DNA of 54,261 bases, filler included, from Streblomastix strix (GCA_008636045.1; 3 parts of 3 records of this genome joined end to end with filler, not necessarily neighbours in it); one strand, 5' to 3'; positions 1 through 47,459 are shown, numbered from the whole stretch's first letter. Notes: a model not told the origin generated them from the letters alone. Numbers and translations are program-made.

Positions 1-700
1 CATGGTGAAGTTGATGGAATTTGTTGATGGATTTGAACAAATAAAATTTTATTGAATTTTATTATATTCGGAAACCTAAAATTATTGGTGAATTCATTAG
101 TGAAATGAACATAAAATATATAATGTTTATAAATTCATTGATGAATTTATATATAAATTTGCTTATGAATTGGTTAGTAAAAATCGTTAGTGAATCCCGT
201 TAATAATTGAACATTTATAGATTGGGCATGTGCCCAGAGGGGATGGGCACTTAGGGTGGGCACTCACTTTATTATAGAAAATAGCTGCCAACATGCCAAT
301 CTGCCAATAGATGAGAAACATTGATGAAAACCGATGGATTTTAATTGAACGATTATAGATTTGCATGTGCCCAGAGGGGGTGGGCACTTAGGGTGGGCAC
401 TCACTTTATTATAAAAAATAGCTGCCAACATGCCAATCTGCCAATAGATGAGAAATATTGATGAAAACCAATGGATTTTAATTGAACGATTATAGATTTG
501 GCATGTGCCCAGAGGGGGTGGGCACTTAGGGTGAGCACTCATTTTATTATAGAAAATAGCTGCCAACATGTCAATCTGCAAATAGATGAGAAACATTTAT
601 ATATTTCTCATTGCTGGAACCAAAAATAAAGTCTATTGGCAGCTCAAACAGCCGCAAGCGGAGTTTTACGTCATAATGGTTATGACTTATCTTCATTGGT
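1..700 (+). repeat. Left terminal inverted repeat (partial)
   Basis: catggtgaagttgatggaatttgt... is the reverse complement of 16441-16464; similarity continues inward to ~700, pairing with ~16037. Confidence 0.93.
208..597 (+). repeat. Three tandem ~137-138 bp copies of a GTGCCC/GGGCAC + CCAA-box cassette inside the left TIR
   Basis: gcatgtgcccagagggg(a/g)tgggcac begins at 226, 363 and 501. Confidence 0.95.
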
Positions 701-1172
701 GCCTTTTTTCTCTGATTCGATGAAAAATTGATATACCCAAATAAGATTATTTGATTCAAATGATGTTCTTTTTCTCTTGCAATATTTACGTAATTTTAAT
801 ATAAATTATTTTTCACTTACATTTGAAGGACATTATTTTAAAATTTCATCATATTTCATACATTATTTTAATAATAATTAATGTTCTTAAAACCATTTAT
901 CTAAAGTTCTATCTTATTCTTCTATATTTAATTCAGATTCAACTATTTTATTTTCTTTATTTTTATTGTATAAATATTCTACTATTGTTTCGCACATCCT
1001 ATCAATATTTCCTTCAAAATATGACCATACTTATTCATTTTATACGAATTTTTATTTTAATATTTCATTTAATTATTTTTCAGATTCATTTATAAATTTA
1101 TTAGTCTCTAACAATGAATTCTTTTTCATGTATTAAATAAATAGTTCCACGTTCTATTTCAATACCTGCCAT
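644..1172 (-). pseudogene. Degenerate T5orf172/GIY-YIG-like protein with a C-terminal tail resembling that of the helicase
   Basis: MAGIEIERGTIYLIHEKEFIVRDQQIYK ... YFEGNIDRM matches the T5orf172 pattern (YL..E.EF.....IYK.G...YFEG). Stops and frameshifts present; ends ...TNEDKSQPL. Confidence 0.55.
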
Positions 1173-1220
1173 TTATTATACGATAAAAAATGAAAAAATA
1201 AAATAAAAATATTTATTATT

Positions 1221-1520
1221 TCAAATATTTAGGTCTACATTGATGATTTCATATTTTTTAATCAACTCGTTTATTGTTATCAAATCATTAATATCCACAA
1301 TTATTTTTTTAAGTTTTTTAATTATTAATAATTGCATATCATTAACTTTTGAAGCATAATTTGTTTAATTTTATTTATATCTTATTCTTGCATTTTTGCG
1401 TTGTTCTCTTGCAGCAATCGCAGCCTATTCTTTATCAATATATTTCTTTGGCCTTCCTTATTTCGCTGAGGCTGTTGATTCCGTTTATGTTGATTCATTA
1501 ACGGCTTGATTATCTGTCAT
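1221..1520 (-). CDS. Small basic 99-aa protein with AT-hook-like GRPKKY motif (conserved element gene)
   Basis: Intact ORF with TAR=Gln: MTDNQAVNEST...KQGRPKKYIDKEQAAIAAREQRKNARIRY; homologues at 48921 and 40593. Confidence 0.75.
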
Positions 1521-1569
1521 TTATTATAAAATAAAAAATTAAAAAATATATAAGTAAATTTTTATTATT

Positions 1570-2955
1570 TCATTTAAATAAAAACTCTGTAGCATAATAT
1601 TCTGGAATTAATTCTTTATTTTCAATAACATACTTACAATAATATGACGGTATTTTTATTATATTTATTTTATAAAAATGATTCAATAATCGACATAAAA
1701 CATTACCATTTACATATCGAATAAACTCCGCTAACTAATTAAAATTTTTTCTTTATTTCATAAATTTTTATTATGTTTTTTAGAAATCAAGATGTATTAA
1801 AATTATATTTCCAGCCTTAAAAGGTAATATGCCCTGCTATCGTTGTCTAGCTAATTGTCGCTCTAATTTCTTTATTTATGAACGTATATATTATCCTTCT
1901 AAATTTCTTGATAATTGAACTTAATATGGGCTATATTTATTTTGAAACGCAAGATGTGGTGTATTATTATATATACCAAAGACTATTTATATTTATTGAT
2001 TCGTTGAAAATTAATTAAATTTATTACCAAATGCGTTCCTTATTGTTCGAGTTACTGAATCGACTACTCGATTATGATTAGTGAATTTTGAATCAGTGAA
2101 ATATCCATTAATTTTATTCTATGAACAAAACAATGCAAAATACGAGCTATTAAATCCTTTCTCCCCATCTCCACGAATATTATTAACGTAATAATTTTTT
2201 TTAATAATTTTTGCAATTATCCGACTACTTATGCTGCTGATTTATCTATCAATAGATATACCACTAAATATTTTGTATTAATGTTTTCGCAAAATAGATA
2301 TAAATATGCTTTTCTTCGATGCTCTTTAGTATGCTCTCTTATTTCATCTTGTTCAAAGATAGCATCATCATATTCGTCATTATTTTCCTGCAAGTCTTAA
2401 TCGACTGAAAAGACTATGTCTAATTCCCAACTCCCTAACTTTGGAGAGAAGTAAGGTCGTTATAATCTTTATAATGGTTTTAATTTATAATCTTTCACTG
2501 GCAAATATTGATTGTTAGCATATTTATGATTATTTTTTTTCAAACAATTTTAATTTTGTTTTGAAAGGAAAATAGGATAAATTTTTCTCATCACCACCTT
2601 AAACGGGTTCGGATTATTGGCTGGATGTCTAATCCAATTATTTATTTTTCTATTTATTCTTTTATTTTACAGGTTCATATTACATTTAAACTGAAACATA
2701 ATAATAATACCAATCTGCTACCGTTCGCTTTCCAATAATTATTTCATCAGCTTTTTCTACCATTACATCAATATGTTTCTTTTTAGCAATTTTAAAGATA
2801 TTTTTTATGAACTCTGATAGAGTCATTTTATAATGAACTTTATATGCTTTATCATCGATATCTTATTATACTTCAAATTCATATTCTTCTCTTTAATATT
2901 ATTCACCTGCGAAAGTACGAAGTATCTCCTCATACAAACTATTTTCGTTTTGCAT
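1570..2955 (-). CDS. Retroviral-like (rve) integrase of the Polinton; two compensating homopolymer frameshifts (~2535, ~2200)
   Basis: RPYFSPKLGSWELD / NIRGDGEKGF / NHNRVVDSVTRTIR / YNNTPH motifs. Confidence 0.9.
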
Positions 2956-2987
2956 TTATTTCCTGCAAAAATAAAACAATTAAAGGC

Positions 2988-3090
2988 ATTAATGTTTCTT
3001 AATCATTGGCAGATTAGCATAATGGCAGCTATTTTCTATAATAAAGTGAGTGCCCAGTCAAAGTGCCCACCCCCTATGGGCACCTACCAA
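2988..3090 (-). promoter_or_regulatory. Internal copy of the TIR GGGCAC/CCAA cassette just upstream of the integrase ATG
   Basis: ttggcagattagcataatggcagctattttctataataaagtgagtgccc...gtgccc...gggcac is the reverse complement of the TIR unit. Regulatory role is inferred from position. Confidence 0.6.
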
Positions 3091-3119
3091 CTCATTAAAT
3101 ACTTAATTATTAACGCTTT

Positions 3120-6100
3120 TCATTGGGGCTCGATTATATAATTATCAGAACTCAATTATTATCCGTTAATGTAAAGGAATGGAGCACAGCATTGATTTTC
3201 AAGCACAACCATTTTATTATGAATCGATGATAAATCAACTTTATTTATTTATATTTTTGACATTAATTTATTTTTTTAACCGAGAATAATATTTTGAGCT
3301 TAAATTTATTCGCCTTTTAATGATTTTTTGAATGTTTCATCATTTAAATGAACATTTTATTTTTATATTATTCCTTTCAAACAATAATTATAATCCGTTT
3401 CATTTTCATTAGGTAGAGGATTATAAATGTAATGTATTTTTGGAGCTAAAGCAATACGTGCTGTTTCTTCTGCCTCATAACTGACTCCAAATAATTGTTT
3501 ATACTAACCGAAGAATAACGGGTAATTTTTATCGTAAAATTTCTGGTTTTTATGACATATTTAAATTTCTGTCTGTAATCCTCTTCTGGGTTGCTGCTGA
3601 TAGCCCATGTCATCGAATCGGTATCACCACAAATATAGTGCATCCTATTCATATCGAAAGCTTTATACATAAAATTATAGATAAAATTAATATACCAATA
3701 TTTGGAGTTGTCAAGAATGAAATACGCAGAATGGAGGCAGGTGTTGCAGTTGCAGCTTTCAGCATTAAATTACACAGCATATAAATCATCTGTTATTTGT
3801 TAGTCATTAACGAATGAACCTTAGATATGAGACAACCATGTTCTATCAGTGCTCAGCAATTTCGTTTGTGAATATTTTTCTTAATTCATTCCATCAATTC
3901 CATAGCTTGAGTTCATAGCTTATTTATAGAATTGTTTTTTTCCATCATTTTTTTCATTTATTGCCTAAATTCTTTGACTCATAAATTCATTAACAAATGG
4001 ATTGAATCTGTCATGCTTCGAGAATGTTATAACACATTAAATATCGTCAATAATAAAATGAAAGTCATCAATGAGAAGCCATAAATAATAATTATTGAAT
4101 GACATGAATTATCCATGAATCGATGATAAATTTGTTAATTTTCGCTCAATTTTATCATGCTACATATTATTTTTCAAAAGCAGATTATACTTGTATGACC
4201 CTAACGTTTTTTAATCTGTCTTAATATTTATATTTCTTAATATAGGAAGAAAATTAATGAAATCATTTATATGTTATTCGTCGATGTGTCCTTTAACAAC
4301 TGCGATAAATAAAGGAATTCCTTCAACGTCATTAAATCGCAGAGGATTATAAATTAAATTTCTTGCTGTTTATTTATCAGTAATTTTATCTAATAATTGC
4401 CCCGCCACGAACATACGGCCGCCTGTATATTTAATGAACTTATGCGGCTCTGAGCTCATAACGCTGGGATATTAACAATTGATATCAAACGTTAAAAGAT
4501 GGGTCATAATGTAGTCGGTGTCCTAACTAATGACCTTTCCATTAATAAATTTTAATTAATTTATTTTAGTTTCACCTGCAACATTATAGCGATGCATGAC
4601 TTGCGATAATCCTCCAGTTATACCAGAACGTAAAATTTAATAAACTTCTTCATCTGTTATCATCATTGGTAAATTTTTACAATAACATAAATTTTTTTAA
4701 TTATATTATTAATCTTGTTAAATTTTCATCTTTATTTGACTTAAATTTATTGCAGAATAAGCAGCACGGTTTCACGTTATCTGCAGAATGGCCCCTGTCG
4801 TTGTTGATTCTATCTAATGTTGGTGGGTTCTTGCTTGTGAATCGTGCCTTGCATATGTGGCATCCTGTCGATAAGAATATTTTTCTGTAGAACGCACAAT
4901 CTGATTCCTTGATGTTGTTGCTTGTATCTCTATTTCTTCTCTTATCTTATTCCAGATAATTTTAAACTTTAATGTTCCAATAATTTTAAGTAAGCACAAA
5001 TGAAGTATAATTATCTTTTGGCGTATAATCTTAATCCAGTTTGAAGTCCCAATAAGCAAGAACATATTTGATAGCATTAGCGCATGCAGACATCGATATA
5101 ATCTGCAACATGTCAATTTTATAATTAAAGAACATATCGATTAAGTAATCAAGGAGCTTAATCATTAGGCGGGTATCTTGTAGGTTGTAGTGTCGGAGGT
5201 AATCCCAACCATTCGAATAATTCTTAGCTACAGCCAAATAATTTAAATATTTCTCTTCACTTATATTTTTATTTTTAATTGTATTATTAAATGCTTCTTA
5301 GGGAAATGGTTAAGGATTATTTAATATTTCATTGAAATTTTCGTAGTTGATGAATTCATATGGAAACTTTAATTTTGTTGGAATTGCTTACGTTGTTTTT
5401 GGTGTGAAGTCTTTAATGAATTATTTAAATTTCATTTTTGTAGAATAAATCATCGCATCGATGAATCTTAATATAATTCCTGATATGTTATGTTTAACAA
5501 TGATTTATTTAACGTTTGAACCACTACCAAGTTATTTAATGATTTGCCATTCGTCGCTCTATAAATTTTTAAGAATTAGAGCAACATCGAACTTTGAAGT
5601 ATTGAATCCAATTAATGGCTCCTCGTAATGCTATGGTATCGTCTCATCTTCATATTTGTTTGAATCTATAACTTTTCTGGCATCCTTAAACAATTATTTA
5701 ATCCATACGTTTACAAAATTAGAGGTTCGTAAGTCAAAATAAATCGAATAAATGTAAGCGTCAGCAACTTCATCAGAACCAGAAACAGCAACTTCATCAA
5801 CTTTGATTTTTTTATTTTTTATTTTTATTGTGCATGCAATCGAAAGAGGTTCAAGTATTGAAATTTATTTTGAATTATCACCAAATTATTCATTGACGAT
5901 TCTTTCTACGGTTTCAATATTATAAGTTATATAATATTTAGTATGTTTAAATTCATCCTCTCGACCATGCGCCAGAAGATACTTATAGCTAATATTATTC
6001 AATATATGTGGAACGTATGGCCTTGGAAATTTTTCTAAATATACTTCCTTTATTATCTTTCCTCTATTTTTTTAATATTTTTATAAGTGCCTTTTTAGCT

Positions 6101-8051
6101 TAGATTATAAATTTGAGTCTCTGGTTTTATAAGCCTACACCCCACAGATAGGACAATATTTTAAACCAGTTAGTGCCTCAACATCATTTATATAAAAAAC
6201 ATGAGCTGTTTGTAGTTCGTTGATTGTGTCAGTAATTAAAAGAACATTAAAATCTTTAGTTTATTCATTCTGTTCGTTTCTTCTATATTGCTTCTATAAA
6301 TAATAACTGCTTGTGCAAGCCTGCTGATGCAGACTTCCTTAATTGGTTGCTGTTGAGGTTGCCGCTGTTTCTTCATAAGCGAACACATTAATATTTAAAT
6401 TTTTGTTCTAAATAAATTAATCAGCTTCTGTTGTAAAATTAAACCAAATATAATTATCATATATTTTCTTGCCATAGATTCTTTAAAATAATCGTTTAGC
6501 TTCAGCAATACGTGAATGTTCCATATAACGCTTAGCTGCAACTGAACCCTCTGCTTTAATGTCTGGCATCGTAATAAATGAATAAGCTAGAAAGAAACAT
6601 AAATTTTAATTATTTTTTTCGGGGTCAATATATCGAATCTCTCGCCTCATAATGTGCTTCTTTAATGATGGTATTGTTCGACCGCCACCAGCGCCAGCAT
6701 GTGGAAGTCTAAACACTTTAATCATTATTGAAAATATTCCAACTATTTTCTCTTTGATGTCCATGATGGGTTTCTCTTACATTTGAATAATGTGGTTTCT
6801 GATGAATCTTTTATAATCAGCTAAATCTAAGCGAGTGCGTATGGTTGTCGGTGCTCTCATCTCTGTTCTAGCTTCAAAGGGATGATTAATTTTATATGTT
6901 ATTTATTAATCGTTTTCATAGCCATCGACTCGTTCAATAATCACTCCAAAATTAAATGCAATTTTGAATGCAAATTTTTATTCTCGTTAATATTTTTCAT
7001 CTAAATAAGCATCGACATCTTCAATCGTTTTCAAATCATTTTTATAATATTCTTTTGTAGGGCTGATGGTATGAACATAAAATGATTCATATTTTACGTG
7101 TTAATTTTATAAATGTTTTCGCTCAAAATTTATTCTTCTATCATATTCTTATTCGAGTTGTGGCTCACATAATATAATCGTACTCTATAGGACGTTAAGA
7201 GCATCAATTGGCCTAAAATTCTTGCCCTTATTTTCTTCATTAAATTATTTTATTTCATCTTTTACATTTTTAAATACATCCTCGTTTTATTTTTATTTAA
7301 GGTTTATTTTTTATTCTTTAATTTCTTTTAATAATTTTGCATGTCTGGCTCGTTAATCTTCACCTATTTGCTCCCATTCTTGATTGCGCTGTTTGCTATA
7401 TTCGTCTTAAGCGTTCATTTGCTATTTGTTATTCTATTCTTGTATAAATTATTTAGCATAAGATTCACCGATAATTTATTCGTTTTGAAGGCCTTATTGA
7501 ATGTCCTATCTGATGCGTCTTGCAAATGGTTCTGATTATAATATTGCATTTCTAACAATATCTCTATTGTTTCTTCCGTGATTTAAACCGATTTTATCTA
7601 AAATTAATGAAAATTAAGATCTTAATTCGTTAATGTTTATTTTCTATTACATTAGGGTGTCATATAAAAACATTAATTCTCTTATAACATTTTGAGTTAG
7701 TTTTTTATGCCTTAAATCCATTTGATAATCCATCCGCCCTTCGTGAGCTTCGTCCTGTTGTTCGGATTTCAGTTCAGGCGATAACTGGTAATTATGTGCT
7801 TGCATTTATGTAATATAATTCTGCATTTATATCAATTATTATTGCCGTTGCTCCATTTATATTTCAGGCGATAGTTAATAATTACGTGCTTACATTTACG
7901 TAATATAGTCTTACATTTAAGTCATTTATTATTATGTTTATCTGGGCGATTGATGAGGAGGTAAATTTTATGGTAATAGCTCTGGTAATTCTTGAGGCAT
8001 AATCGGAGGCGTGCGTCGTCTTTATGAGTCTTTCCCATATTTATCTGTCAT
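3120..8051 (-). CDS. Protein-primed family B DNA polymerase (pPolB) with long N-terminal extension and inserted Endo VII/HNH domain; a few frameshifts (e.g. ~6445, ~3500)
   Basis: ExoII IGFNTSKFD, ExoIII YNLQDT, motif A FDINCQYPS, motif B KQAMNSSYG, motif C YICGDTDS; CHIC...LDRINNDRGHSADNVKPCCLFCN at ~4750-4870. Confidence 0.93.
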
Positions 8052-8181
8052 TTATTAAAAATAAAAATAAATAACAATTACATAAATAAATTGAATTATT
8101 GGATGGATTGAGAATATTGAAATCATCAATATTCTTCGTTATTGGCACGAAGAAATGGAACAGATAATAAATGACTTTTAG

Positions 8182-8279
8182 GTGTTCCGAGTGTTCCGAG
8201 TGTTCCGAGTGTTCCGAGTCAAAAACTTTTATAAAAAGCTGTGGCCAACTGGACAACTGGCCAATAATTGAGAAACATT
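8182..8279 (+). promoter_or_regulatory. (GTGTTCCGA)x4 iteron-like array followed by CCAA boxes, ~130 bp from the pPolB start
   Basis: Four perfect 9-bp repeats, then aaaagctgtggccaactggacaactggccaataattgagaaacatt, which resembles the second half of the TIR cassette; recurs at 47309. Confidence 0.55.
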
Positions 8280-8301
8280 AATAAAAAATAAATATTCTTA
8301 A

Positions 8302-9420
8302 TCATTGTCTGTTTTAAACGAACTTGTATTTAGCTAAATCGTAAACACCTATTTATTATAATTTATTTGTTAAAATTTGACCATAGTATTACATAGCTTA
8401 TCCAAGTGCTTCCTTAATTCTAGCATCAATATCATTGGCTTGATATAGTTGAGTAATAACTGCAGCTAATTCTTTCTTATACAATCTTTTAGCAGGTGGC
8501 AAAAATTCGTAATCTCCTTATTTTACATTAACTTTATTGCTTCGGTTATATATGTCTATTTTTCCGTCTTATCTTTTTAATATTTCTACTGCAGGAATAA
8601 TAAGAATTGAATTCCATGCAGATACCATTATTTGTTATTTGGTAGCCATTAGCAAATTTGCACCTCCATTTTGGTCTAAGAGTTTTTTGGCATTGAGGGT
8701 GAATGCTCTGAAACTAAAATCCTTTATTTCTCTTACTTTTTGCGGCTTAGTCATTGATAGCCATTTCATGTAAAGGCCGCCTTTTATACCTTATTGTTTT
8801 AATTTTGCAGCCAATGCAGCTCGTTCTAAATCATTAACATCTGAATATTATTATTTCTTCCAATTTCTTTTACGTAAATGTTCTGGGTCGCCAAATCCTA
8901 CTGCTGTTGTATAACCATCGACTGAATAAATTGCGTTCTTTTTCTTATCAAACACAACCACATTATCAGGAGTGGCTACATTATCATCTAAATCTTATTC
9001 CGAAACACTAAATTGTTTGCCTAAATGTTTATCATTTATGTATTGTTGAGCACTGACGGCAGATGATAACCTATTAATTTTCTTAATGTCTCTGTTTAAA
9101 TAACCAACGAGTGTAGCAAGAACATCACCCGCCTCTTATCTAAATTATGGGCCACCATGCTTTCTTGTTCTTTATATCATACTTGGATGGAACGGCAGCC
9201 TACCAAACGGTTTGGCTCTGGATTTCAATCTGTCTTATCTTGTAGCTTGTGATTCATAATAATCGTAATCATCTTCCATTCCATCAACTTCCATCATCCC
9301 ACCTGCACCACTACCACTTGCGCCTTAGCTTTTTTCAGCTTCAAATTCTCTCCTTGCGTTTCTATCTTCTTCATTAATTATTTACTAGATTTGTTATTCT
9401 GATAATGATGATGTCGCCAT
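8302..9420 (-). CDS. Intact 372-aa hypothetical Polinton protein, head-to-head with the ATPase
   Basis: Open from ATG 9420 to TGA 8302 with TAR=Gln; contains DLDDNVATPDNVVVFD...YSVDGY. Confidence 0.75.
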
Positions 9421-9460
9421 TCTATTTATAATCGATAAAAAAAAGTTTTATATAATAAAA

Positions 9461-9795
9461 ATGGCGAGTTTAACATAAAAAGTCGATAATATGTTAAAAG
9501 AAATAATAGTGAATAAGCACGAAATTTAAACAATTATTCATAAAGAGTTAAATTTTACATATAATTCTGTAAATTTATTGATAGGTTAGCGCGGCAGTGG
9601 CAAGACATACAACGTCTTCAAAGAGCTAATAAAATTAAGTTAATTAAAAAAACATTGTTATACTTTATTCATTTACGTCAGCGATTCAAATAATGACACC
9701 ACTTATAAAAAGATGAAGGATTTAATTAAAATTCCAACTAAAATTATTCCATATGCCGAAGCGGATTAAGTGCTAAATGATTTGATATATGCGTA
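9461..9795 (+). pseudogene. A32/FtsK-like genome packaging ATPase, N-terminal part only
   Basis: VNLLIGQRGSGKTYNVFKELI (Walker A) and YVSDSNNDTTY; no Walker B before the sequence switches at ~9795. Confidence 0.8.
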
Positions 9796-9861
9796 TAACT
9801 CTGGGAAGTCAGATAGACCAGCAGCATATAATAATCTTTCATCGATATAAACGTTTGACAT
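9790..9861 (-). pseudogene. 5' stub of a deleted gene (candidate major capsid protein)
   Basis: MSNVYIDERLLYAAGLSDFPELY begins right after the fibre gene and collides with the truncated ATPase. Identity is inference only. Confidence 0.3.
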
Positions 9862-9928
9862 ATATATTCAATAAAAATAAATTATTAATCCAAATAATTT
9901 CAATCAATTATAAACAGAAGCATTATTT

Positions 9929-12835
9929 TCATACAATTTAAAAAGCAGATATTCCAATTGTTTAATAATATGGTCAATTATTCGTATTTAGATACAAAAT
10001 TAACTTTTATGTCCCATTACTATATGCTGCATAATATGTTTGTGAAAATAAATCACCATGTTATATAGAAAATACAAAACTACTTGGCACATATGTGTTT
10101 GGAATTTGGCGTACATTAATATTAAGACTACCGCCTACTGTTATTTCACTTTTTGCATATACTTGAGTATAAAAAAAGTATTATCTTCCAATTTTACAGT
10201 ATTACAATGTGTTAAAATTTAATTATGATGACTTACCCGTGACCGTTGATGTTAAATCTTCAAATCCTCCAAACGAGGACAGCAAGACATCACCTCCACC
10301 AGCCAATAAAACCGATTTATCATCTTTGCCTGTTTTAGCAAATCCAGCAGCATTAACAATTGAATTGAATGTTTTTATGCCATATATCGTTTAATTATCA
10401 TAACGACTAACAAAAGCATTATATATTTCTCCTCTTGTTAAATAATCTTCATTATACTCAGACATTGATAATTCTTCATCATCTCTTCGTAATAATCCAT
10501 GAATTATTTAAAATTCTTATCCCGTTTTCTTCACATAATTTATATCATCAACGCTTCCACTTACGAATTCACTAATTAGCTTAGTGCCACCAGCTCCAAG
10601 TAATACAACAGTATCATCAGCGCCAGATTTAACAAACGACGCGCCTATAATTGTTGCCATTCCATCGATAGAACTTACGAATCTACAAGTATTATTGAAT
10701 GTCTTGTTTGCTGTTATTGTCTATGATGTGTCTAAGGTCATGTAACCACTTAAATCAGCATCATCAACTTCAATTTATGATATCAAATAATCAGTTTCTG
10801 TTTTGGTATAAGTTGTTGATTGATTTGCTTTCAACAACAGCAAAGCGTCATCCTCTCTTTTTGTATATGAAACTCCTGAATTTGCTTTATCATCGAGTAG
10901 ATTATCGGCTTCGCCTTTAGTGTAAGCATCAATCAATTATGTTTTGTCTGCCTTCAATAATAGCAAAGTGTCAACCTCTCCCTTTTTATATATGAAACTC
11001 CTGAATTTGCTTTATTATTTAGCAGATTATCGGCTTCTCCCTTAGTGTATGCATCGATTAATTATGTTTTGTCAGCCTTCAACAATAGCAACGCATCATC
11101 TTATGTCTTAGTGTACGCATCAATTTAATCGCTTACGTTTAAATTTAAATTTAATTTTAGTCTGTTTCAGTTTATGAATATGTTTATGATTTATTATAAT
11201 AGTTTGAAAAATCTACACTTGCATTTATGTCCTATATTGCCTTAACACCACCACCTGCACAAACAACTGAATTGTTATCGTAATTTTAAACAGATATTCC
11301 GACTGAGTGGATAGTTGTATTAAATGTCTTTTAACCTGTAATAGTTTCATCATAGTTAGTCGTTATAAATGAACTGTTTTTCGCAGGTATTAATGCATTT
11401 CCATCAAAAGATAAATCTGTTATTGCATTGCCTCCTCCTGTAGAAGCTCCAAGAATAGTCATGACGTTGCTCATATCTGGCAGTTCTGTTTCTAGTGCTC
11501 GAAGACTAGCACCATCCCACCAATAATCCATAACTTATTTATCAACTATATATAAATATCACCTATTGCTGATTTAGCAACGTTTTCCTAATCTTCCATC
11601 CAAGTGTTCATCTCATCCGTAATCGCAAAGACATATCCTTTTGATTTGCCTGATGCAATATCTCGAACTTCTTATAGTTATGGCTGTGATACTAATGAAC
11701 TTACTAGCATATCACCACCGCCAGCAATAAGAATAGAAGCATCATTTTTATTCCATTTCGATATGCTTGAAACACTTATTATTCCGAATTATTTTTGACC
11801 TGTTATTGTTTGTGCCGAAGTTAAATCAACATAATCTGCTAATTCTGTTTTGTCAGCCTTCAATAATAGCAGAGAATTATCTTCCTATTTATTATAAGCA
11901 TCATATTATTCAGTAATATTTAATTTGTCGTGGAGTAGGGCATCGGCTTCTGTTTTATTGTAAGCATCAATTTAATCGCTTACGTTTAATTTGTCGTCGA
12001 GTAGTGCATCGACTTCAGTTTTATTATATGCATCGATTTAATAAGATATATTTAATTTGTCGTCGAGTAGGGCATCGACTTCAGTTTTATTATATGCATC
12101 AATTAGCTCAGATTTATAAGCCTTCAATAACAGCAACGCATCATCTTCTTATTTACTATAAGCGTCGATTAAGTCAGAAATATTTAATTTGTCATCGAGT
12201 AGAGCGTCGACTTCAGATTTATTATATGCATCAATTAGCTCAGATTTATAAGCCTACAATAACAGCAATGCATCATCTTCTTATTTACTATAAGCATCGA
12301 TTTAGTCAGAAATATTTAATTTGTCATCGAGTAGTGCATCGACTTCAGATTTATTATATGCATCAATTAGCTCAAAAATATATAATTTGTCGTCGAGTAG
12401 GGCATCGGTTTCATTCTTCATGTAAGCATCTATTTAATCGGTTATATTTAATTTTTCATCGAGTATTGCATCTGCTTCCTATTTATTATAAGCATCGATT
12501 TAATCAAAAATATTTAATTTTAATGCTTGCAATTCATCATCTTCAGTTTTCGAATATGCATCAATGAGCTCTGATTTATTAGCCTTCAACAACAGCAGAT
12601 CATCATCTTCATATTTGGTGTATGCATCAATTTAATCAGATATATTTAATTTTTTATCTAACATTTCATCAATTTCTTCACGATTATAAGGTTCAGGAGC
12701 TTCATTAATTATATTTATTAAATTTTCAATATTTTTTATTTCGTTAATAAAGCCAATAGTGTTATACTTACTTGAACCATAAAACACTTAATCATGATTT
12801 AACACAGCATCAAGCATATGCAAATCTCCGTCCAT
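9929..12835 (-). CDS. Fibre/tail-fibre-like repeat protein (mildly disrupted)
   Basis: ~21-aa repeats (DAYNKTEVDALLDDKLNISQI, YTKGEADNLLNNKANSGVS), DYWWDG motif, SFVKSGADDTVVLLGAGG-type shaft repeats; homologue at 41782. Confidence 0.75.
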
Positions 12836-12866
12836 TTTATAAAAATAAAAATAATTTATTATGGCA

Positions 12867-13430
12867 TCAAATTTTATTTAACACTGTCATTAATCCTTTA
12901 GATACTGCACTAATAATTTTGCTTGTTATTTCTCCTAAATCTAAAATACTTGTTATTTTTCTTATTTTTTATAAACAAATTTTATAGCTATCCCTTAATA
13001 AATTTACTTTTTCGACGTCGAGCTTTAATATATTTACGTTTCCAATTAATATCTCATTTAATGTTTATGTTAAATCGCTGCAAAACCTACCACAACATCC
13101 TTCATCCTCTATACTCAATTAAATTTAACTTTCTGGAACGTCAAAAGTGCAAGCATCAACCCCAACCAATTAATTTTCAGGTAAAAATGAAATGCGCTGA
13201 TTCTTTAACCATATGCTTGTCTTCACTAATGATATCTAACAGCCAACGACACATTGAAGGGTCAGGAGTTAAAGTTTCTTCAAATATTGAACTTCTGCGC
13301 CTAGCTGACAACGTGGGCGTTTCACATCTGATAACCTATGCCTGAAATGGGTTGCTGAAACTGGGTTGCTGAAATGGGTTAATTTTTTTTCAAATTATGG
13401 TTCTATTTCTGGAATTGTAGGACTCTTCAT
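12867..13430 (-). CDS. Conserved ~187-aa hypothetical Polinton protein (SxRRRSSIFE), frameshifted
   Basis: ARRRSSIFEETL...LLDII.EDKH..KESAHFI...SKGLMTVLNKI aligns by eye with 41129-41689. Confidence 0.75.
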
Positions 13431-13491
13431 TTTATTCATGTTAAAAATAAATAATTATTCACGTTAAATAAAAATCGATAATTGAATTGAT

Positions 13492-13588
13492 TATAGATTT
13501 GGCATGTGCCCAGAGGGGGTGGGCACTTAGGGTGAGCACTCACTTTATTATAGAAAATAGCTGCCAACCTGCTAATCTGCCAATTGAT
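13492..13588 (+). promoter_or_regulatory. Internal near-identical copy of the TIR cassette between two divergent genes
   Basis: tatagatttggcatgtgcccagagggggtgggcacttagggtgagcactcac...gctgccaacctgctaatctgccaat; lies between ATG 13430(-) and ATG 13682(+). Confidence 0.65.
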
Positions 13589-13681
13589 ATAAATAAGATA
13601 AAAAACTAAAAAAAAAATAAACTTATTTTAAAAATAAACGAGTTTGTTTTATTTAAATTTGATTTTTTTAACAGGTAATAA

Positions 13682-16084
13682 ATGGAAGGCAATAAGAATC
13701 CAACAACTGACTCTAATTTGAGTTCTATTTTATTTGCAATTGATGCTTTGAAATCATCATAAAATGGTTAATAAAACAAACAAATATTTAAATAATTCGA
13801 TTAAATTTATACTTAAACACTTGGCGATAGAATTAGAGATGCAACAACAGATTTATATAATTATGTTAAATTTCCAACGAATAAAAATATTGGATATAAA
13901 TCAGGATAGGCAATAGATATTGCAAAGTTCTAAGGGTTAGCAATTATAGATATTGAAATAAATAAATCATTAAATGATAAATAAAGAAAATAAATAAGAG
14001 ATTAAGTAATTAAACGACTTGGCTAAGTGATTGAACTAATCGGACTTGTTTAAATGGCTCATGGAGGACTACATTTATTTTGTAATTTATACGGTTATAA
14101 TATAAAAAATAATTCATAAATCAAAGTTTATAAGAATGAAAATTATGAGATTGATTTATTTTGTTGCATTAATGAAAATAACATTGGATAGTATAAGCTG
14201 GTTCAACAATTAGAGAATCGACAAATAATGAAAGATAAATATTAAAATATATTGATTTAAATAATTATAAATCTAAATAATTTATGGCCCCTCTTGAGTG
14301 CATATCGGATTTATTAGGTATCGACCTGTAGCAGTAAGTTGATGAAGAAATATCTTATATATCTGATAAAGGAACCACTTAATTATCACGTTCTTATGCA
14401 GAGTTATTAATTCAAGGTATAGAAGGATTAGAGATTCATAATGATGCTTAAAAAAATAGAAAAAGAAATAAGCTTATTAACTTTGTTTTCAGGACTCAAT
14501 GGATTAATTAATTGTGGATTTAATGAAGAAGAGATTGATTAAGCTTATGAAGATATTAAAGAAAGCAATAATTTAACAAGTAATGCAATGGAGTAATGGG
14601 AACAGAAAAGATAAGATTTAATGATAAAAAATTCATATTCAATTTATAGAAAATTATTAAATATCACAACAAATAATATTATGAAAATGTAATATTGCCA
14701 GAGCTCAGAAAATAAAATAATTAAAATAAAAATATAACTGAAATTTAAATATTTGAAATTGATTTACATGATGATTTTAATTTAGTTGATATAAAAAAAA
14801 ATATACAAAGGACGAAGAAGTAATAACGGACCTAACTAAAATAATGCGGATTGTGGAGTCGAGAATGGATTTCATTGTCAAAGCATATGATGTTCATGCT
14901 AAAAGATACATATTGGAACATAAGACATAAGAGGGTATGTCTGATGTTTTAAAAACAATGATGTTATGGAAAGATGGCAAAAAATAATCAACTGTATGGC
15001 ATATATTCGAAAAATATACAGCATTACTTAGCATATAAGGTATAAAATTTAATGAAAAAGAACCTTAAATTTTCTCATTGTTTTAAAGATGGAAATATGA
15101 ACTACTTGAAAAATATAATAAAAATATAATAAAATAATATTTAGATTTAATGTTAAATATTATTTGTTCAGGCGATGAAAAATTATATAATTATGTAATT
15201 AATTGGATAGCTTATATACTTCAAAATGCGGGAAGGAAGACCGAATCATCACTCGTTTTAAAAGGAAATTAAGGCATTGATAAGAACAAATTTGCAGATG
15301 TTTTTTGTGAGCTCATGGCGGGCTACAGCTGCAAAAATTGCACAAATATAAAAGAACTTACAGGAAATTTTAATATAATAGTTGAAGGAAAGGTCTTGAT
15401 TATAGCCAATGAGATGACAAATTTTGGAGAGGATAAACGAGCAAATAATGAAGGTTTAAAATCAATAGAATCCGATTATACAATTAGAATTAATGAAAAA
15501 AATTAACCTCGTCGTGATGCTGAGAACGTAGCAAATTTTATATTCGTTTAATATAATCCTTATCCTGTAAAAATTGAAGCAAGTGATAGGCGATATGTTG
15601 TGCTAAAATGTAGTCCAATTCATAAAGGAGACAGTCAATATTTTAAAGAATTATGCAATAGTTAGGATATCAATTTTTACAATAATTTATTTACTTTCTT
15701 CATGCAATAAGATTTGAAAGATTTTGATATGCGACAATTACCGATGACAGAGGCAAAACGCGATATAATTAAGGCTAGCAAATCATAGATAGAAGATGTG
15801 ATATTGAAGCATTTGGACGAATTTAAATAAGGTGTTCCATGTGTAAGTGCTTCATAATTTAAGCCTGATAATATGAAACAATAATTCTATGAAATTGGAA
15901 TAAATATATATTGCGAACATAAAAAAATAAAAAAATAATCAATTCGTAAATGGTGTTATGAACTAAAACAAGAATATTATGCTTAGTTCGAACTGTTCAA
16001 AGATGAAATGGATAATGATGATGAACTTGAATTTAAACCAATGAAGATAAGCCATAACCATTAGAATAAACATTAGATGTTTGA
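13682..16084 (+). CDS. AEP-type primase (prim-pol) fused to SF3/D5-like helicase; frameshifted
   Basis: LAIIDIE and GLVQMAHGGLHLF (AEP motifs); LVLKGNQGIDKN (Walker A with G>D), LIIANE, KIEASDRRYVV (helicase). Confidence 0.85.
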
Positions 16085-16464
16085 ACTAGCGCAGCAACAT
16101 CCAATAGACTTTATTTTTGGTTCCAGCCATGAGAAATATATAAATGTTTCTCATCTATTGGCAGATTGGCATGTTGGCAGCTATTTTCTATAATAAAGTG
16201 AGTGCCTACCCTAAGTGCCCATCCCCTCTGGGCACATGCCAAATCTATAATTGTTCAATTATTAACGGGATTCACTAACGATTTTTACTAACCAATTCAT
16301 AAGCAAATTTATATATAAATTCATCAATGAATTTATAAATATTATATATTTTATGTTCATTTCACTAATGAATTCACCAATAATTTTAGGTTTCCGAATA
16401 TAATAAAATTCAATAAAATTTTATTTGTTCAAATCCATCAACAAATTCCATCAACTTCACCATG
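16037..16464 (-). repeat. Right TIR (single cassette copy)
   Basis: Reverse complement of 1-700 lacking two of the three tandem units. Confidence 0.93.
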
Positions 16465-16730
16465 TAGTTATGAGAATATGGAGAGTGTCATACGTTCAAA
16501 AATCAATATCATTAATCAATTCATTAATCAACTTCATTAATCAATTCAATTAATCAAATTCAATATTTTCAAACAATAATTTTAATCAAGTAAATATTTT
16601 TATTTTACATTATTTTAAATCCATATTTATTAATTATTATTTATTTTCATAATTTTATATTCATTATTTTATTTAACATTATTTATTTTATTTTTCTATG
16701 TGGGGCACTCTCCATATTCTCATAACTACT
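16464..16730. repeat. Terminal ~267-bp module bounded by 24-bp perfect inverted repeats, ending in ACTACT
   Basis: gtagttatgagaatatggagagtg (16464-16487) vs cactctccatattctcataactac (16706-16729). Confidence 0.92.
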
Positions 16731-17300
16731 GACAAAGCACCAAAAATCTCGAGCCCATAGATGTTTATAAAGCGGTTAAAGTGGAGGATGAGCGTTTATT
16801 GATATTAGCAAAAATAAAAAATTATAATGAATACAAATAGAAATTCAAAAACTGTTTGATAGCAGTTTCAGTTGAAAGATAACGAGCAAAATATATTGTA
16901 GGGTTAGGAATTCTCTAAATTGATTCACGCAGTTCTTTTAAACATTTCACTATAAACAAAATTTAAGGAAGATTATAAATATTGTTTATATTTATTTCAA
17001 GTAGAAAATCAAATATTTAAACTATACTTATCTTTTGCTTAGAAAAAATCTGATCAAACCCCAACCTGTGAAATATCAGAAAAAAAATCAAAATGTGCCA
17101 AGTTTACGACGGAATGGCTGGTGCAGTACAGGCTATAAAAGATGACTACAACAGAGGATTGAAGTATAATTTTCAATAAATAATCTCATTTGATTAAAAA
17201 TCTGTAATTTACTTTTTTTTTGATTTTTCTCAATTATTTAAAACTTTATAGAGGGCTGATGCTTGGTTTGACAGTTGTTGCATTTGCACTATTCGCATGA
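16731..17300 (+). pseudogene. 3' part of a host surface-protein gene interrupted by the element
   Basis: Open frame starts immediately after ACTACT. GT..AG introns; spliced end ...DDYNRGLKGLMLGLTVVAFALFA* resembles a GPI signal. Faint similarity to 29196-30193. Confidence 0.45.
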
Positions 17301-18317: not shown

Positions 18318-18720
18318 GAATTATATATATAACTTCATGTACAAATGTCTAGACCGCAAGCGATTTCATTTTGTTCTTGCCGATACTGATTCAATATATA
18401 TTGCTGTAGCAGGAGATTCAAGTAAAGATTGCCATTAATAATTTGATGCAATAATATCAGATAAACAATTCTATGATGAACATGTAAACTAATATTTACC
18501 AGATCCTAAAAAAAAGACATTTATGACTATAAAAAGATATTTGGATTTGGAATAGAAAATGATGGATATTAGCTTATTTCACTAGGACCTAAGTGTTATT
18601 CAATGATTGTACGCAAATGGGACAAAGAAAAATTACAATTTGAATTTAAACCAAAAATTACATCAAAAAGAATAAGTAAGACATAAGAAATATCTCATAA
18701 TGATTATGTTAATGTAATTA
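18318..18720 (+). pseudogene. pPolB C-terminal relic (Polinton family B)
   Basis: NYIYNFMYKCLDRKRFHFVLADTDSIYIAVAGD...LGPKCYS; highly similar to 36523-36920. Confidence 0.88.
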
Positions 18721-20431
18721 ATATATATATTAATTTATTACGACTTTCACAACTAAGATCTAAACTAATTATTACGTATAAATAAAATATCAAAATGACA
18801 AATCAACTTATTCAGAAAACAATTATCAAAAATCATGCACATATAAACACTTCTCCAACTCTTTGCGTAGGATGAATCAGCGTTTCTAGTGGAATAATAA
18901 TTCAGATTAAAACATAATTTAAAAATAATATATTATTTTTATAAAAATGAATTAATAAATAAATAATTATTATAAAAAAAAGTTCAAATACCAGTAATTA
19001 GGATCAAGATCAATATGTGAGCAATCATCATAGTAACTTGAGAAATATTAGAAAAGTATTTGATAATAAAATATATTAATTAAAAAATTTTAAATTTTAA
19101 AAAAAATAATAAAAACAGGCCAATAATTAAATAAAATAAAATACATTCTGAAGTTCATGTGCTCCAAATCAGCTGAAGTGAATTAGCGAACTGAAGGGGC
19201 ATAATTCAAAGTACTCATATGAATTTCAGATGATGTTATACAATTTGACGTTATGCTACAGAAAGTTAACAATCTATAGGTTGCACGGTTTGAGGCTATA
19301 CTACTTGTGGTTAAATTATTTAAAATTCTCGCGGTTTTTGTTTCTTGCAAATTGAACATAAGTTCTATTAAGAAAGCCAGTTTTATGATCAAACGCTATG
19401 AACCTGATTTTAAATTGTAAATTAGTATATACATGGTGGTGGAGAAGTCCATCCGTCGAACTTTTCTACATACTCATAGAAGGCATTTTAATTTATTATA
19501 AATAAGTATGTTTCGTATGATGTCATAGAAAATTTGAATTGCTTGCTTTTATGATTGGAAGTTTATTCATTACAAAATGATAATTTTTATATATATGAAA
19601 ATTGAAAATTTTTAAAATCGTATCATAACTATATGATTTTGATTATATTTGATGTAATGAATATATATTTGTATTATGTATGTAAGATATATATAATATA
19701 TTATATATACACTAAAATTGGAACACTTCTCAAAAACTCAAAAATAGGGAATTTTCCTATAATTTTTTAAAAAGCCAAAATTTTATAATAAATATTTTAT
19801 AGCGATTTCTCTTCTAAAATTAATTATTTTAATAATATATTGTTAGTGCTGGTATAAATAATAATAAATATAAAAGATAAAATTGAAAACTAGAATAAAT
19901 AAAAAATATAAATAATAATAATTATATTCAAATACCTGATGTACGCATGCTCTGCATGTTTCAACTCGTGTTTTTTTTGACCAATTAATAATTTCAGGTT
20001 TATTTTTATTTTCTTTTTATTTTCTTTATCCTTTTCGTTCAACGTTGTTATTCTCTTCATCTTAATTGTTCACTTAATTATTGTCTTACTGCAATAACGG
20101 TTAAGGTTAATCTGGATAGCAAGCAATAATTCTTCTCTAAATTAATAGATGAATATAGAAACAGATAAAAATAAAATTGATTTATCAATTTGAGAAAAAG
20201 TTGAAAAATAAATATTATTTTCGTTATTTCAGTTTTATTTTTTTTGTTATTATTAGTAAAATACATACATATATTTCCATTCTATTAATATGTTTCCTTG
20301 AGTATCTTTCCTGGAAAATCGGGCAGATTGTACTGTAATAAGGAAAATGCGATAACCTCTACATTTCATTACGAGATTACCTAATTATCCACTTAATATG
20401 GACTATCCTTTTTATTGTGAGACAGCAACTT

Positions 20432-36249: not shown

Positions 36250-37110
36250 GCTATATTAGCAGGATCAACTAAAGAGAAATTCTATAAGCTAATAATTAAT
36301 TCATCATATGGATATGACACTCTAAACACAGAGAAATTTGGAAAGATAAAGATGCTAGATAAAGCTGGTACTTTCATTGCATAGCATCACCCTAATCACA
36401 TGGGTACCAGACGGATTAGTGCTAATACATTTGCAGTATAAATTAAACCTAAGACAGCTACTTGCTTCAAATCAATTCAATCAGGAGTTTTTACCTTAGA
36501 TAATGCAAAATATTGGTATCTCAATTACATATATAACTTCATGTATAAATGTCTAGATCGTAAACGATTTCATTTTGTTCTTGTAGATACTGATTCAATC
36601 TATATCGCAATAGCAGGTGATCCAAATAAAGACTGTCATTAATAATTTGAATCAATAGTCACAGATAAACAGTTATATGACTAACATGTTTACTAATATT
36701 TACCTGATCCTAATAAAGACATCTATGATTACAAAAAGATACTTGGATTTGGTATTGAAAATGAAGGATATGAACTTACATCATTAGGACCTAAGTGCTA
36801 TTCAATGATTGTGAATAAATGGAATAAAGAAAAATAACAATATGAATTTAAACCAAAAATAACATCAAAAGGAATAAGTAAGACATAAGACATATCTCAT
36901 AGTGATTACGTCAATGCAATTAATAAGGATATAGTGAAGAAAGGTATTAATGGAACATTAAAGGTATACGATAATGTTATGAGTAGCATTCAAGTTGAAA
37001 AATATGCGCTAACTGGGTTCAATAATAAGTCAATAGTACTTAGGTATTAATGTTGCTGTCCTTATATTAAAGGATTGACAGCAAAGGATTATGTTATCAA
37101 AGATTAATTA
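36250..37110 (+). CDS. pPolB C-terminal part (family B), 5' cut by contig start; 3' end approximate
   Basis: KLIINSSYGYD (motif B), VLVDTDS (motif C), LGPKCYS, NNKSIVL..QCCCPYI. Confidence 0.92.
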
Positions 37111-37137
37111 ATTTATTATTTTTTATTTTAATCTAAA

Positions 37138-37503
37138 ATGGAAACCGTATAGCAATATCTAACTCAAATTGATGCAAACAAAAAATAGATTAATTGGCTG
37201 ATAAATCTATAATCATAAATAATATAACCTGAGAATTAAATGAAATAATCTAAATAGAAACCAAATCATATTAGTGATCAAAAAAATAACCCCTTCTGTG
37301 GCATTAAAGTTATTGACAACAGTGCTAACACTTTCATTGAAATGAGAAGAATACTTAAAAATAGTATATAAAATGAATTACATAGGATTAATTGTAATAA
37401 CACTAGTAATAACATATTACATAACGCATTAATGGAATACGATGAAATTAGATATAATTATTAGTAATAATTAGAAGATCTACTTGACAATATAGATGAT
37501 TGA
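37138..37503 (+). CDS. 121-aa hypothetical element protein
   Basis: TAAAATG start, open with TAR=Gln, TGA stop. Confidence 0.55.
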
Positions 37504-37559
37504 TTGTTTATACTCTTTGAGTCTAAGAATCTTTGATTATTATTTTTTGCATTAATGAA

Positions 37560-37703
37560 ATGACTATCTTTGAACCAATTACTGCAAATATAACCATTGC
37601 AATTGAAGCACTTGAATCACTCCATATTGATTGGCATGCTATTTGGAAAGCAATCTATGAGGCAGGAATCAAGTTCGCTTGCGAATCAAAGTTATGCAAA
37701 TGA
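37560..37703 (+). CDS. 47-aa small protein with predicted amphipathic helix
   Basis: MTIFEPITANITIAIEALESLHIDWHAIWKAIYEAGIKFACESKLCK*, relatively GC-rich between T-rich spacers. Confidence 0.45.
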   Translation: MTIFEPITANITIAIEALESLHIDWHAIWKAIYEAGIKFACESKLCK

Positions 37704-37755
37704 ATAAAAAAGTAGTTAGATATTATTATTTTTTAGTTTTTTATCCGATTATAAA

Positions 37756-38343
37756 ATTACACAAACAGAGACAGAATTCGTCACTCTTAAAGCTAATAGT
37801 GAATTTGAAATCTCGACATAAGAGACATGGATTATACGTAGAAAAGAAGATGGATTTATTCCTAAATTCAGTAAGAATAATCGCGGGTATTTGCGTGGAA
37901 ATGTTGGTGGATAAAAATGTGATCTTCATAAAATTATTGCGGAATAATTTGTTACAAATGTTAACCCAATTAATAAGACATAAGTTGATCATAAGGATTA
38001 AAATAAGTTAAGTAACAGTTTAAGTAATTTAAAGTATGTATCAGCAAGTGACAATTGTAAAAATAAATCGAAATATAATAAAGATATTATTTATGAATAT
38101 GTTGATGAAGTTCCTGATGATGCTATTACCATTAGTGATTATGGATTACATTAGTTTGAATTCTATTCCTATAGTTAAGAAACAGAAAAATTTTATTACT
38201 ATAACGGCTTAAAATATAGGGTATTACACATCAATGAGAAAAAACGAAGTGGGTTGTTATTTGTTTATGCTTATGATAATGAAGATAATTTAGTAAAACT
38301 CTATATCAATAAATTCAAAAGACTGTATAACATAGTAAATTGA
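37756..38343 (+). CDS. HNH endonuclease (NUMOD4/HNH_3-like); start codon apparently mutated (ATT)
   Basis: GYLR...LHKIIAEQFV...QVDHKDQNKLSNSLSNLKYVSASDN. Confidence 0.85.
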
Positions 38344-38403
38344 AAATAATAAATGAGGAAACTAGATATTATTATTTTTTTCTACTTTTTTATCCATTTA
38401 TAA

Positions 38404-38739
38404 ATGGCATAGACTGAGACTTACCCCAACATTAGAATTAAATCACGTGATGTATCTCGTTTAATTAATCTACAGCTTAAATATGAATTTGTCTATTAAC
38501 TCCCTGATGACTCTATTCGTATTGAAACTTATGATAGTGGTCGCGGATATTATGAGTTTTAAAATTTTTATTACTATAATTATTGAAGTGATAAATTCTA
38601 CTCACGTAATTTACTGGTATAACCTATTAGTGTGTAAAAGAAGACTGGAACATAAATTGTTTATTTAACTGATGTGAATGATCAGAGAGTAGGTATAAAT
38701 ATCGATAAATTCAAAAGATAACACAGCATAATAAATTGA
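38404..38739 (+). pseudogene. Paralogue of the HNH protein C-terminal domain without the nuclease; one internal TGA
   Basis: YEFVYQLPDDSI...DKFY...INIDKFKR vs YEYVDEVPDDAI...EKFY...LYINKFKR. Confidence 0.65.
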
Positions 38740-38772
38740 AACCATTATTTTTGCTTCCTTACTATAAATTAA

Positions 38773-40571: not shown

Positions 40572-40592
40572 ATTTATTTTTTTTATTATTGA

Positions 40593-40900
40593 AATGGTCA
40601 ATAAAATATCGTAAATTGAAAATTTAATTAAGGAGTAAATTGACAAGAGATTAGTTGGAAGGCCAAATAAATAAATTAATGATACAGATAGAAAAGAAGC
40701 AATTCATATATAACAATTTGCTACAAAGAGATTGTATGCGTAAAAGAAAGCGTTGATTTACAATAAAAATAATTCATTCAAAATTATTAATGAAATTATT
40801 ATTTGATCATAACTTTAAAGAAGATGATCTGAATTATATGTTGGAATGTTTATAAACTGACATAGAATAAAAGATCGTTGAGAAGAATAATTAAATAGAA
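40593..40900 (+). pseudogene. GRP-motif small basic protein homologue; end approximate
   Basis: KRLVGRPNKQINDTDRKEA; same position downstream of integrase as 1221-1520. Confidence 0.5.
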
Positions 40901-41689: not shown

Positions 41690-41781
41690 TAGCAAGCAAA
41701 TCTTGATTGCCGCAAATCGAAAGTTTGTTTATCCTGCCAGCTTTGTTGGTATGTAGTTCAAGTAGTTTATTTTTGAATAAA

Positions 41782-42525: not shown

Positions 42526-42539
42526 TGCTCATTTATTAT

Positions 42540-42692: not shown

Positions 42693-42694
42693 AT

Positions 42695-44770: not shown

Positions 44771-44771
44771 G

Positions 44772-47243: not shown

Positions 47244-47308
47244 ATGGCATTAAAATTATGCATTAATTTTTCATTATAAATTGAGTTGGGTAATGAATGA
47301 CTTTTGAG

Positions 47309-47400: not shown

Positions 47401-47459
47401 TTCTTAATTTATTTCATCAGTGAATTGAACATAAATTTTTTTATTTTTGCAAGAAATAA

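Follow-up and report, generated by a model that had tools for sequence, protein, structure and literature searches.

A decayed copy of a probable Maverick/Polinton-type element from a Streblomastix-like oxymonad, with polymerase and primase-helicase genes read through TAA and TAG as glutamine

The stretch of DNA analysed here, 54,261 nucleotides (nt) long with filler included and called the window throughout, begins with what we propose is a single copy of a Maverick/Polinton-type integrated element. Our reading is that positions 1–16732 (element A, or copy A) are one decayed copy, in which no capsid gene was found, of a high-copy element of a Streblomastix-like oxymonad whose genes are written with TAA and TAG as glutamine, and we give this reading a probability of about 0.8. 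Its evidence comes from long inverted termini, from a family B DNA polymerase of the protein-primed type (pPolB), from a gene that joins an archaeo-eukaryotic primase (AEP) to a superfamily 3 (SF3) helicase and, with more reserve, from an integrase related to the rve family. These features lie in the window as follows.

1..325, plus strand: inner part of the left inverted terminus, 98% complementary to 16140–16464
204..639, plus strand: three tandem units of about 125–137 nt in the left terminus (repeat comparison)
1573..2955, minus strand: rve-like integrase in at least two frames (2380–3057, 1761–2822 and 1573–2343), ATG at 2955
2987..3122, minus strand: solo terminal unit just upstream of the integrase ATG (repeat comparison)
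3135..7664, minus strand: pPolB (PF03175, 32 homologs, motifs A, B and C)
4728..4862, minus strand: HNH nuclease motif, CxxC...DRINN..H..N..CCxxC, separating the exonuclease part of pPolB from its polymerase part
13478..13604, plus strand: solo terminal unit upstream of the primase-helicase ATG at 13682 (repeat comparison)
13682..16061, plus strand: AEP primase–SF3 (D5/NrS-1-like) helicase, spread over three frames or more (DUF5906, AEP motifs, fold matches)
16101..16732, minus strand: right inverted terminus, comprising a unit at 16140–16262, the arm matching 1–325 and a foldback, its end set by a public contig (L018)

Inverted termini, polymerase and primase-helicase

What marks the bounds of the element? 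The window is AT-rich (23–34% GC), and its first 325 nt pair with 16140–16464 at 98% complementarity, as the long terminal inverted repeats (TIRs) of a Maverick/Polinton element would; the flanks inside them pair as well (479–639 with 16261–16101, 95%). The inverted match starts with the first base of the window, which therefore truncates the left arm, and by symmetry with the right end an outer left terminus of about 270 nt would precede the window. A 26-letter pattern taken from the outer right arm led to L018, a contig of 7448 nt (23% GC) whose final 56 nt equal window 16732–16677 at 100% and whose other 7392 nt are unrelated. Since the match ends in unrelated flank, the right terminus lies at about 16732, within 2 nt of the end at 16730 given in an initial annotation of this DNA, and L018 is, to judge by its sequence, another insertion of element A's family. 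The full length of element A is thus about 17 kb. Target-site duplications of Mavericks/Polintons are short, about 6 bp.

Two further features characterize the termini. A foldback, in which inverted arms of about 35 nt flank about 200 nt of AT-rich DNA, is kept in element A (arms 16463–16495 and 16700–16733) and in a further copy in the window, copy B, whose integrase-side end (49441–49732) is 73.5% identical to 16438–16735. The second is a G+C-rich unit of about 125 nt (125–137) that carries a GTGCCC/GGGCAC inverted repeat, forming a hairpin, and three GCCAA motifs. All six copies in the window belong to element A, and none occurs in copy B or in another copy, C: three stand in tandem in the left terminus, one in the right, and two are solo, 50–100 nt upstream of the integrase ATG (2955) and of the primase-helicase ATG (13682), in equal relative orientation and 90–92% identical to the terminal copies. 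The start codons of both genes stand in AATAAATG context. Repeated as it is in the termini and upstream of both genes, the unit may be a promoter, a regulatory site or a protein-binding iteron.

The polymerase matches Pfam PF03175 (DNA_pol_B_2) with an E value of 6e-6 and 25.8 bits, at the gathering cut-off of 25.8. Among 6183 candidates, 32 homologs were found at E <= 0.001, 19 of them named as Streblomastix strix and 13 unnamed metagenome proteins; the best is from S. strix (46% identity, E 3e-175), in agreement with the oxymonad-like host of the initial annotation. An affinity with ciliate elements (Tetrahymena Tlr) was dropped after these best matches emerged; Tlr elements, as PMC4028283 describes them, are also without pPolB. 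Full-length relatives measure 1477–1524 amino acids (aa). Motifs ExoII, ExoIII, A, B and C are kept in the window, and the catalytic Asp of ExoI, present in 12 of 12 aligned homologs, is Asn here. The reading frame changes near 4675–4696 and near 3536–3551 (tblastn). A frameshift near the PolB C-terminus that copies A and B seemed to share was also dropped, as the alignment shows two different indels. The HNH motif recurs in 16 of the 32 homologs, including every protein of 1477–1524 aa, and is present within the PolB of copy B (45373–46203, plus strand).

The primase-helicase matches Pfam DUF5906 at E 3e-14, and the family profile matches the NrS-1 primase at 1.6e-30. Homologs numbered 129 at E <= 0.001 among 3248 candidates; in the best 120 of the 129, on which naming was based, the matches listed include 16 from S. 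strix, four from Monocercomonoides exilis ("Poxvirus D5 protein"), one from Trichomonas vaginalis and one from Histomonas. The T. vaginalis relative (P0100) is 43% identical (E 4e-95) and stands for a cluster of 198 members. Most listed homologs have 745–780 aa, and the window gene, passing through frames 2, 1 and 3, matches proteins of 754–770 aa over their whole length. AEP motifs I–III read IIDIE, AHGGLH and YEIDLF (DxD/E, sGGLH, DID), the DxD (D65, D67) being invariant in 30 aligned relatives, so that both an N-terminal AEP primase and a C-terminal SF3 helicase (DUF5906/VapE-like) are present, in copy A not as one uninterrupted open reading frame (ORF). An in-frame TAG stands directly after the point where the relatives end (16062–16802 region). 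An AlphaFold2 (AF2) model of one relative (P0033; confidence score, pLDDT, 85) matched in the PDB, by Foldseek, the NrS-1 CTR (1.5e-19) and full-length AsfvPrimPol (2.4e-12, 906 columns), and further the SaPI5 primase-helicase and MPXV E5; in BFVD, primase-polymerases of phages, a helicase/primase from a Qinghai Lake virophage and D5-like proteins of giant viruses matched it over nearly their full length. A single-protein helicase query of IMG/VR found no relative, and an alignment query found 17 distant loci (26–33% identity) without PolB, integrase or ORF372, an element A gene described below, nearby, which made these loci uninformative.

In trees of this protein (FastTree on 93 rows, unnamed proteins under 700 aa left out; and a quick IQ-TREE run, LG+C20 PMSF, on 35 rows) the window sequence groups with those of S. 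strix (95 in FastTree, 93 SH-aLRT). Their sister is Monocercomonoides, and the resulting oxymonad clade (100 and 95) stands apart from a clade with T. vaginalis, Histomonas and most metagenome sequences. The tree thus mirrors host relationships, which fits the long residence in oxymonads that the initial annotation had supposed.

Does the primase-helicase belong to the element? We propose that it does, because it sits within the element termini, shares its upstream unit with the integrase, has PolB for a neighbour in S. strix and has a counterpart in the primase protein of T. vaginalis Mavericks. In S. strix, PolB and primase-helicase locus tags lie close together, 000015 and 000012 on what is apparently one 74190-nt contig, and 000044 and 000054 apparently share another of 56927 nt.

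The integrase is a less certain assignment. At E <= 0.001 its fragment 1573–2343 finds 367 relatives, of which 51 were aligned; all 51 keep three Asp residues, a pair of which stands 36 residues apart, and Pfam rve is matched by six of the 51, at best with 9e-7. One S. strix protein (P0016) carries the UniRef name "Integrase catalytic domain". A profile of the family matched HIV and other retroviral integrase cores weakly (E 0.02–0.7), and the integrase fragment and an ATPase-like fragment of the element, each searched alone against PDB sequences, gave spurious matches only. We accept, with reservations, that the gene at 1573–2955 encodes an rve-like integrase.

Genetic code, decay and the other copies

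Long open frames appear in the window only when TAA and TAG (together TAR) are read as sense. In homology-supported frames there are 62–84 in-frame TAR sites per gene set, and when standard-code relatives are aligned, TAR falls opposite Gln in 17.5% of primase-helicase cells (32 of 183) and 13.8% of PolB cells (74 of 538), compared with 13.8% and 15.0%, respectively, for CAA/CAG and a background of 3%. The TAR share of Gln codons is 0.61–0.76 in element genes and 0.50–0.82 in three host ORFs in the window; third-position GC content is 0.23–0.29 for both, and in-frame TGA is absent. TGA, the only stop, as in table 6, ends PolB, ORF372 and the fibre-like ORF where their homologs end. TAR thus aligns with Gln as often as CAR does, at a host-like share and with TGA at the ends, and we conclude that the recoding which the initial annotation claimed for all genes is real. 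It had already been published for endogenous viral elements of S. strix, which use TAA/TAG as Gln (table 6; Bellas et al. 2023, PMC10120064). It is reasonable to suppose that such a code would restrict the host range of the element.

Copy A contains at least two frameshifts in PolB, at least two in the primase-helicase and at least one in the integrase, and each of these genes and the fibre-like region is spread over two to three frames. On this evidence copy A is decayed and is not a functional virus genome. The defects appear not to be uniform across the family. For example, the integrase frameshift of copy A is read through in copy B, and next to the first frame change in PolB a single base (4692) is missing in four contigs of one sequencing run (X1) and in one of another (X3), so that other copies appear to be without this PolB defect; most depth in X1 at 4692 agrees with the window. 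These contigs come from a mapping that covered window 3200–5200 (2 kb of PolB), with runs from three studies, comprising termite gut metagenomes and one coded organism, none of the runs listed being of RNA. Contig pieces of at least 90% identity to this interval numbered 5406 in X1, 198 in X2, 639 in X3 and 435 in X5, and 1226 pieces in X1 were at least 99% identical, with many single-base variants. Thousands of near-identical pieces indicate a very repetitive family.

The remaining genes of copy A are as follows.

674..1261, minus strand: ORF of 196 aa, open under code 6, no Pfam match, weak similarity (31%) to copy B
1224..1682, minus strand: small basic ORF with a GRPKK motif downstream of the integrase, 65% aa identity to copy B 48759–49172, no Pfam match
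8302..9420, minus strand: ORF372, intact, 372 aa, of a high-copy S. strix-specific family
9461..10045, plus strand: P-loop NTPase remnant (Walker A, GQRGSGKT), probably truncated, overlapping the 3' end of the fibre ORF
9977..13303, minus strand: fibre-like repeat region in three frames (9977–11071, 11082–11558 and 11474–12886), with a conserved upstream part at 12870–13303

ORF372 is the sole clearly intact gene in copy A. All of its 101 matches are from S. strix, with up to 84–90% identity, and the N-terminus of the family is acidic and disordered. The AF2 model is mostly helical (pLDDT 57), and Foldseek returned no PDB match for it at E <= 0.001. The P-loop fragment (191 aa) has only sub-threshold Pfam matches, to ATPase_2 (E 0.004) and Terminase_3 (E 0.01). 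The fibre-like region consists in part of nine copies of a 66-nt repeat, giving 22-aa tandem repeats, and matches no Pfam family; its upstream part (12866–13303) is 67% identical to 41690–41254. Thus, of the genes that the initial annotation had placed within one TIR pair, pPolB and the primase-helicase are upheld by homology and the integrase is weaker, the "ATPase" being a Walker-A fragment and the "fibre" a set of repeats without a family. Scanning the window for Rfam families and for tRNAs gave no hits.

Elsewhere in the window lie other, incomplete relatives of the element.

18319..18723, plus strand: PolB fragment D, 85% identical to copy C
36250..40803, plus strand: copy C, of a second family, with a PolB C-terminus, a separate HNH_3 ORF (37564–38340), an integrase and a small ORF
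41141..49732, minus strand: copy B together with fragments next to it, in opposite orientation to A, with a terminus (49441–49732), an integrase, the C-terminal half of PolB (44772–47221), a primase-helicase (42714–44795) and a fibre fragment

The PolB of copy A is 78% identical in aa sequence to that of B and 39% to that of C, in line with the earlier claim of at least two families. The interval 36250–49732 is a cluster of nested or juxtaposed fragments, copy C being followed by a fibre fragment and then by copy B, and within copy B the interior of PolB (44772) abuts the interior of the primase (44678–44795). The idea that copy B is a simple internal-deletion derivative of an A-like element was no longer taken as firm evidence, the helicases being 42% identical compared with 78% for PolB. 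Two pairs of 44-N runs, 12 nt apart within each pair, occur at 18027–18126 and 36150–36249; some 200–270 nt after each pair comes a related PolB fragment (18319–18723 and 36523–36925, 85% identical), and the second pair divides a host TmcB-like gene from copy C. That gene (30952–36147, plus strand) encodes a large membrane protein with TmcB-type TPR repeats (PF25474, E 9e-15). A second host gene (51432–54260, plus strand; 943 aa, open 3' end) has repeated GGGIY/NCxS beta-helix-like motifs, and both use TAR as Gln, as do the long ORFs flanking the reverse transcriptase (RVT_1, E 1e-10, at 22814–23638) of a retroelement at 20862–26000.

Weighing the alternatives

Several observations weigh against the Maverick/Polinton reading. 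No Pfam family matched the window's own integrase fragments, and support for the integrase is weak, with rve matched by six of 51 homologs and a best PDB E value of 0.02. In Pfam searches of all 82 ORFs of at least 110 aa in 1–17000 no capsid (DUF4106 or other), penton or protease was matched, though divergent capsids may escape Pfam; the double jelly-roll capsid and penton of a Maverick/Polinton were thus not found, nor was a maturation cysteine protease among the ORFs of 1–17000, and the region that would correspond to an FtsK/A32-type ATPase is the 191-aa Walker-A fragment. The "virus" half of a Polinton is therefore, as far as the sequence goes, without support in copy A, ORF372 being modelled as helical. 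The primase-helicase frame has no TGA until 16802 and runs through the terminus; its stop may have disappeared as this copy decayed. In the primase-helicase trees, where the IQ-TREE support comes from a quick run only, a long branch (0.72–0.77) leads to the window row. The helicases of A and B share only 42% aa identity compared with 78% for PolB, a discordance by which copy B may be a mosaic or two juxtaposed elements and is no clean proof of linkage. Finally, if the window was assembled from short reads, as it may have been, some frameshifts or joins in so repetitive a family could be artefacts, a caution also voiced in PMC10120064.

The discordance between A and B would suit a different account of the primase-helicase, namely that it arrived beside the right terminus as a mobile cassette of its own, or within a composite element, and is not an ancestral second module. 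The gene is bracketed by inverted units (13478–13588 and 16262–16153, 92%), and independent movement of AEP-SF3 genes is argued for in a 2026 preprint (10.64898/2026.10.13.758929). However, the right boundary of such a cassette is the element's own terminus, with no separate outer repeat or duplication seen; the unit of about 125 nt also precedes the integrase and so looks like a shared upstream element and not a cassette end; canonical T. vaginalis Mavericks include genes with a primase domain (PMC7845603); and PolB and primase-helicase are near neighbours on two S. strix contigs. We therefore regard a cassette as unlikely. Somewhat less likely again is an origin of part of the arrangement in the assembly, which would then have merged many near-identical copies into a consensus or chimera. 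The family is extremely repetitive and fragmented, no contig piece among those listed spans 3200–5200, the one-base variant at 4692 exists, and PMC10120064 warns of false stops in such assemblies; yet the termini are symmetric over 325 nt with inner flanks that match too, L018 confirms the terminus independently, and most X1 depth at 4692 agrees with the window. That copy A is the genome of an infectious Polinton-like virus, intact or recently active, is the least probable account by some distance and is already contradicted by the copy itself. Termini that are 98% alike, an intact ORF372, the 1226 pieces of at least 99% identity in X1 and the S. strix elements with capsid genes reported in PMC10120064 could be cited for it, but they face frame changes in PolB, primase-helicase, integrase and fibre, the loss of the ExoI catalytic Asp, a truncated ATPase, and a search of 82 ORFs that found no capsid, penton or protease.

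How, then, would a Maverick/Polinton-type element of this kind work? By analogy with known protein-primed PolB elements and rve integrases, we propose that intact relatives would replicate from their inverted termini by protein-primed PolB, assisted by the AEP primase–SF3 helicase, and would insert by means of the rve-like integrase; from copy A the capsid genes would have been lost. A more ambitious scenario, which we put forward tentatively and think more doubtful than not, holds that an oxymonad-specific Maverick lineage has remained in its hosts from a time before the code change in Streblomastix. As the window primase-helicase is sister to those of standard-code Monocercomonoides elements, the genes would then have been recoded in place along with the host, and the A-type would be a capsid-less, transposon-style derivative that expanded to a very high copy number, using its own terminal unit of about 125 nt upstream of the integrase and primase-helicase as a control or binding site.

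Relation to known elements

The combination of pPolB and a retrovirus-like integrase defines Mavericks/Polintons in PMC5499653, and in element A a polymerase of this kind, frameshifted and without its ExoI Asp, stands with a gene that we accept only with reservations as such an integrase. The label "Polinton-like virus" in the initial annotation is therefore better replaced by Maverick/Polinton, and its sense of a viral genome does not suit a decayed copy with no detectable capsid module. The Mavericks of T. vaginalis were reportedly described by Pritham et al. in 2007, and they are among the closest known counterparts. Their gene list in PMC7845603 has pPolB, a c-integrase, a protein with a DNA-primase domain and fibre-like structural proteins, and they too are bounded by TIRs and reach very high copy number, nested or fragmentary copies being common. 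In contrast, element A has an oxymonad host, genes in the TAA/TAG-glutamine code and the S. strix-specific ORF372; its primase-helicase falls in a separate oxymonad clade, and in copy A we found neither a KilA-N gene nor a capsid of the DUF4106 type, which PMC10120064 identifies as the T. vaginalis major capsid protein. The endogenous elements of S. strix treated in that paper share the same or a very close host, table 6 and the nearest proteins, and their capsid genes were placed in a "Metamonada group" with parabasalids (Bellas et al. 2023). Those elements are, however, defined by a capsid gene, and none was found in A.

Comparison with more distant systems gives a similar picture. Like classical Polintons and adintoviruses, element A has pPolB and, by a tentative assignment, an rve-family integrase between TIRs. 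Classical animal Polintons carry a protease, a packaging ATPase, a penton and a double jelly-roll capsid and are not known to have a primase-helicase. Unlike them and the adintoviruses, element A has a primase-helicase, and a morphogenesis module was not found. Likewise, an SF3 helicase or primase-helicase as replication gene recalls Mavirus-type virophages and Polinton-like viruses, Mavirus itself having pPolB, an rve integrase and an S3H helicase (PMC3671162); unlike in these, no virophage-type capsid or protease was found in A. The HNH domain inserted in a protein-primed PolB resembles that of pPolB2 from nematodes and oomycetes, for which PMC10748475 gives it as a synapomorphy; the polymerase of element A is metamonad and is likened to them by motif only.

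What does element A add? Both points that headed the initial annotation, the recoding and the pairing of pPolB with a primase, are already in print. The two replication modules do lie together inside the termini, and Yutin et al. (2013, PMC3671162) described pPolB together with a primase-helicase as "not common", but the pairing is not new for metamonad Mavericks, given the gene list in PMC7845603. Current views are thus not overturned. The present analysis contributes an annotated metamonad Maverick in a variant genetic code, with its termini mapped, and extends the pairing of pPolB and AEP-SF3 primase-helicase from parabasalids to oxymonads. Furthermore, with a primase-helicase tree that branches as the hosts do, one can ask how integrated viruses keep up with a codon reassignment in their host, and if such elements need TAR to mean glutamine in order to be read, the code itself would be a barrier to their escape.

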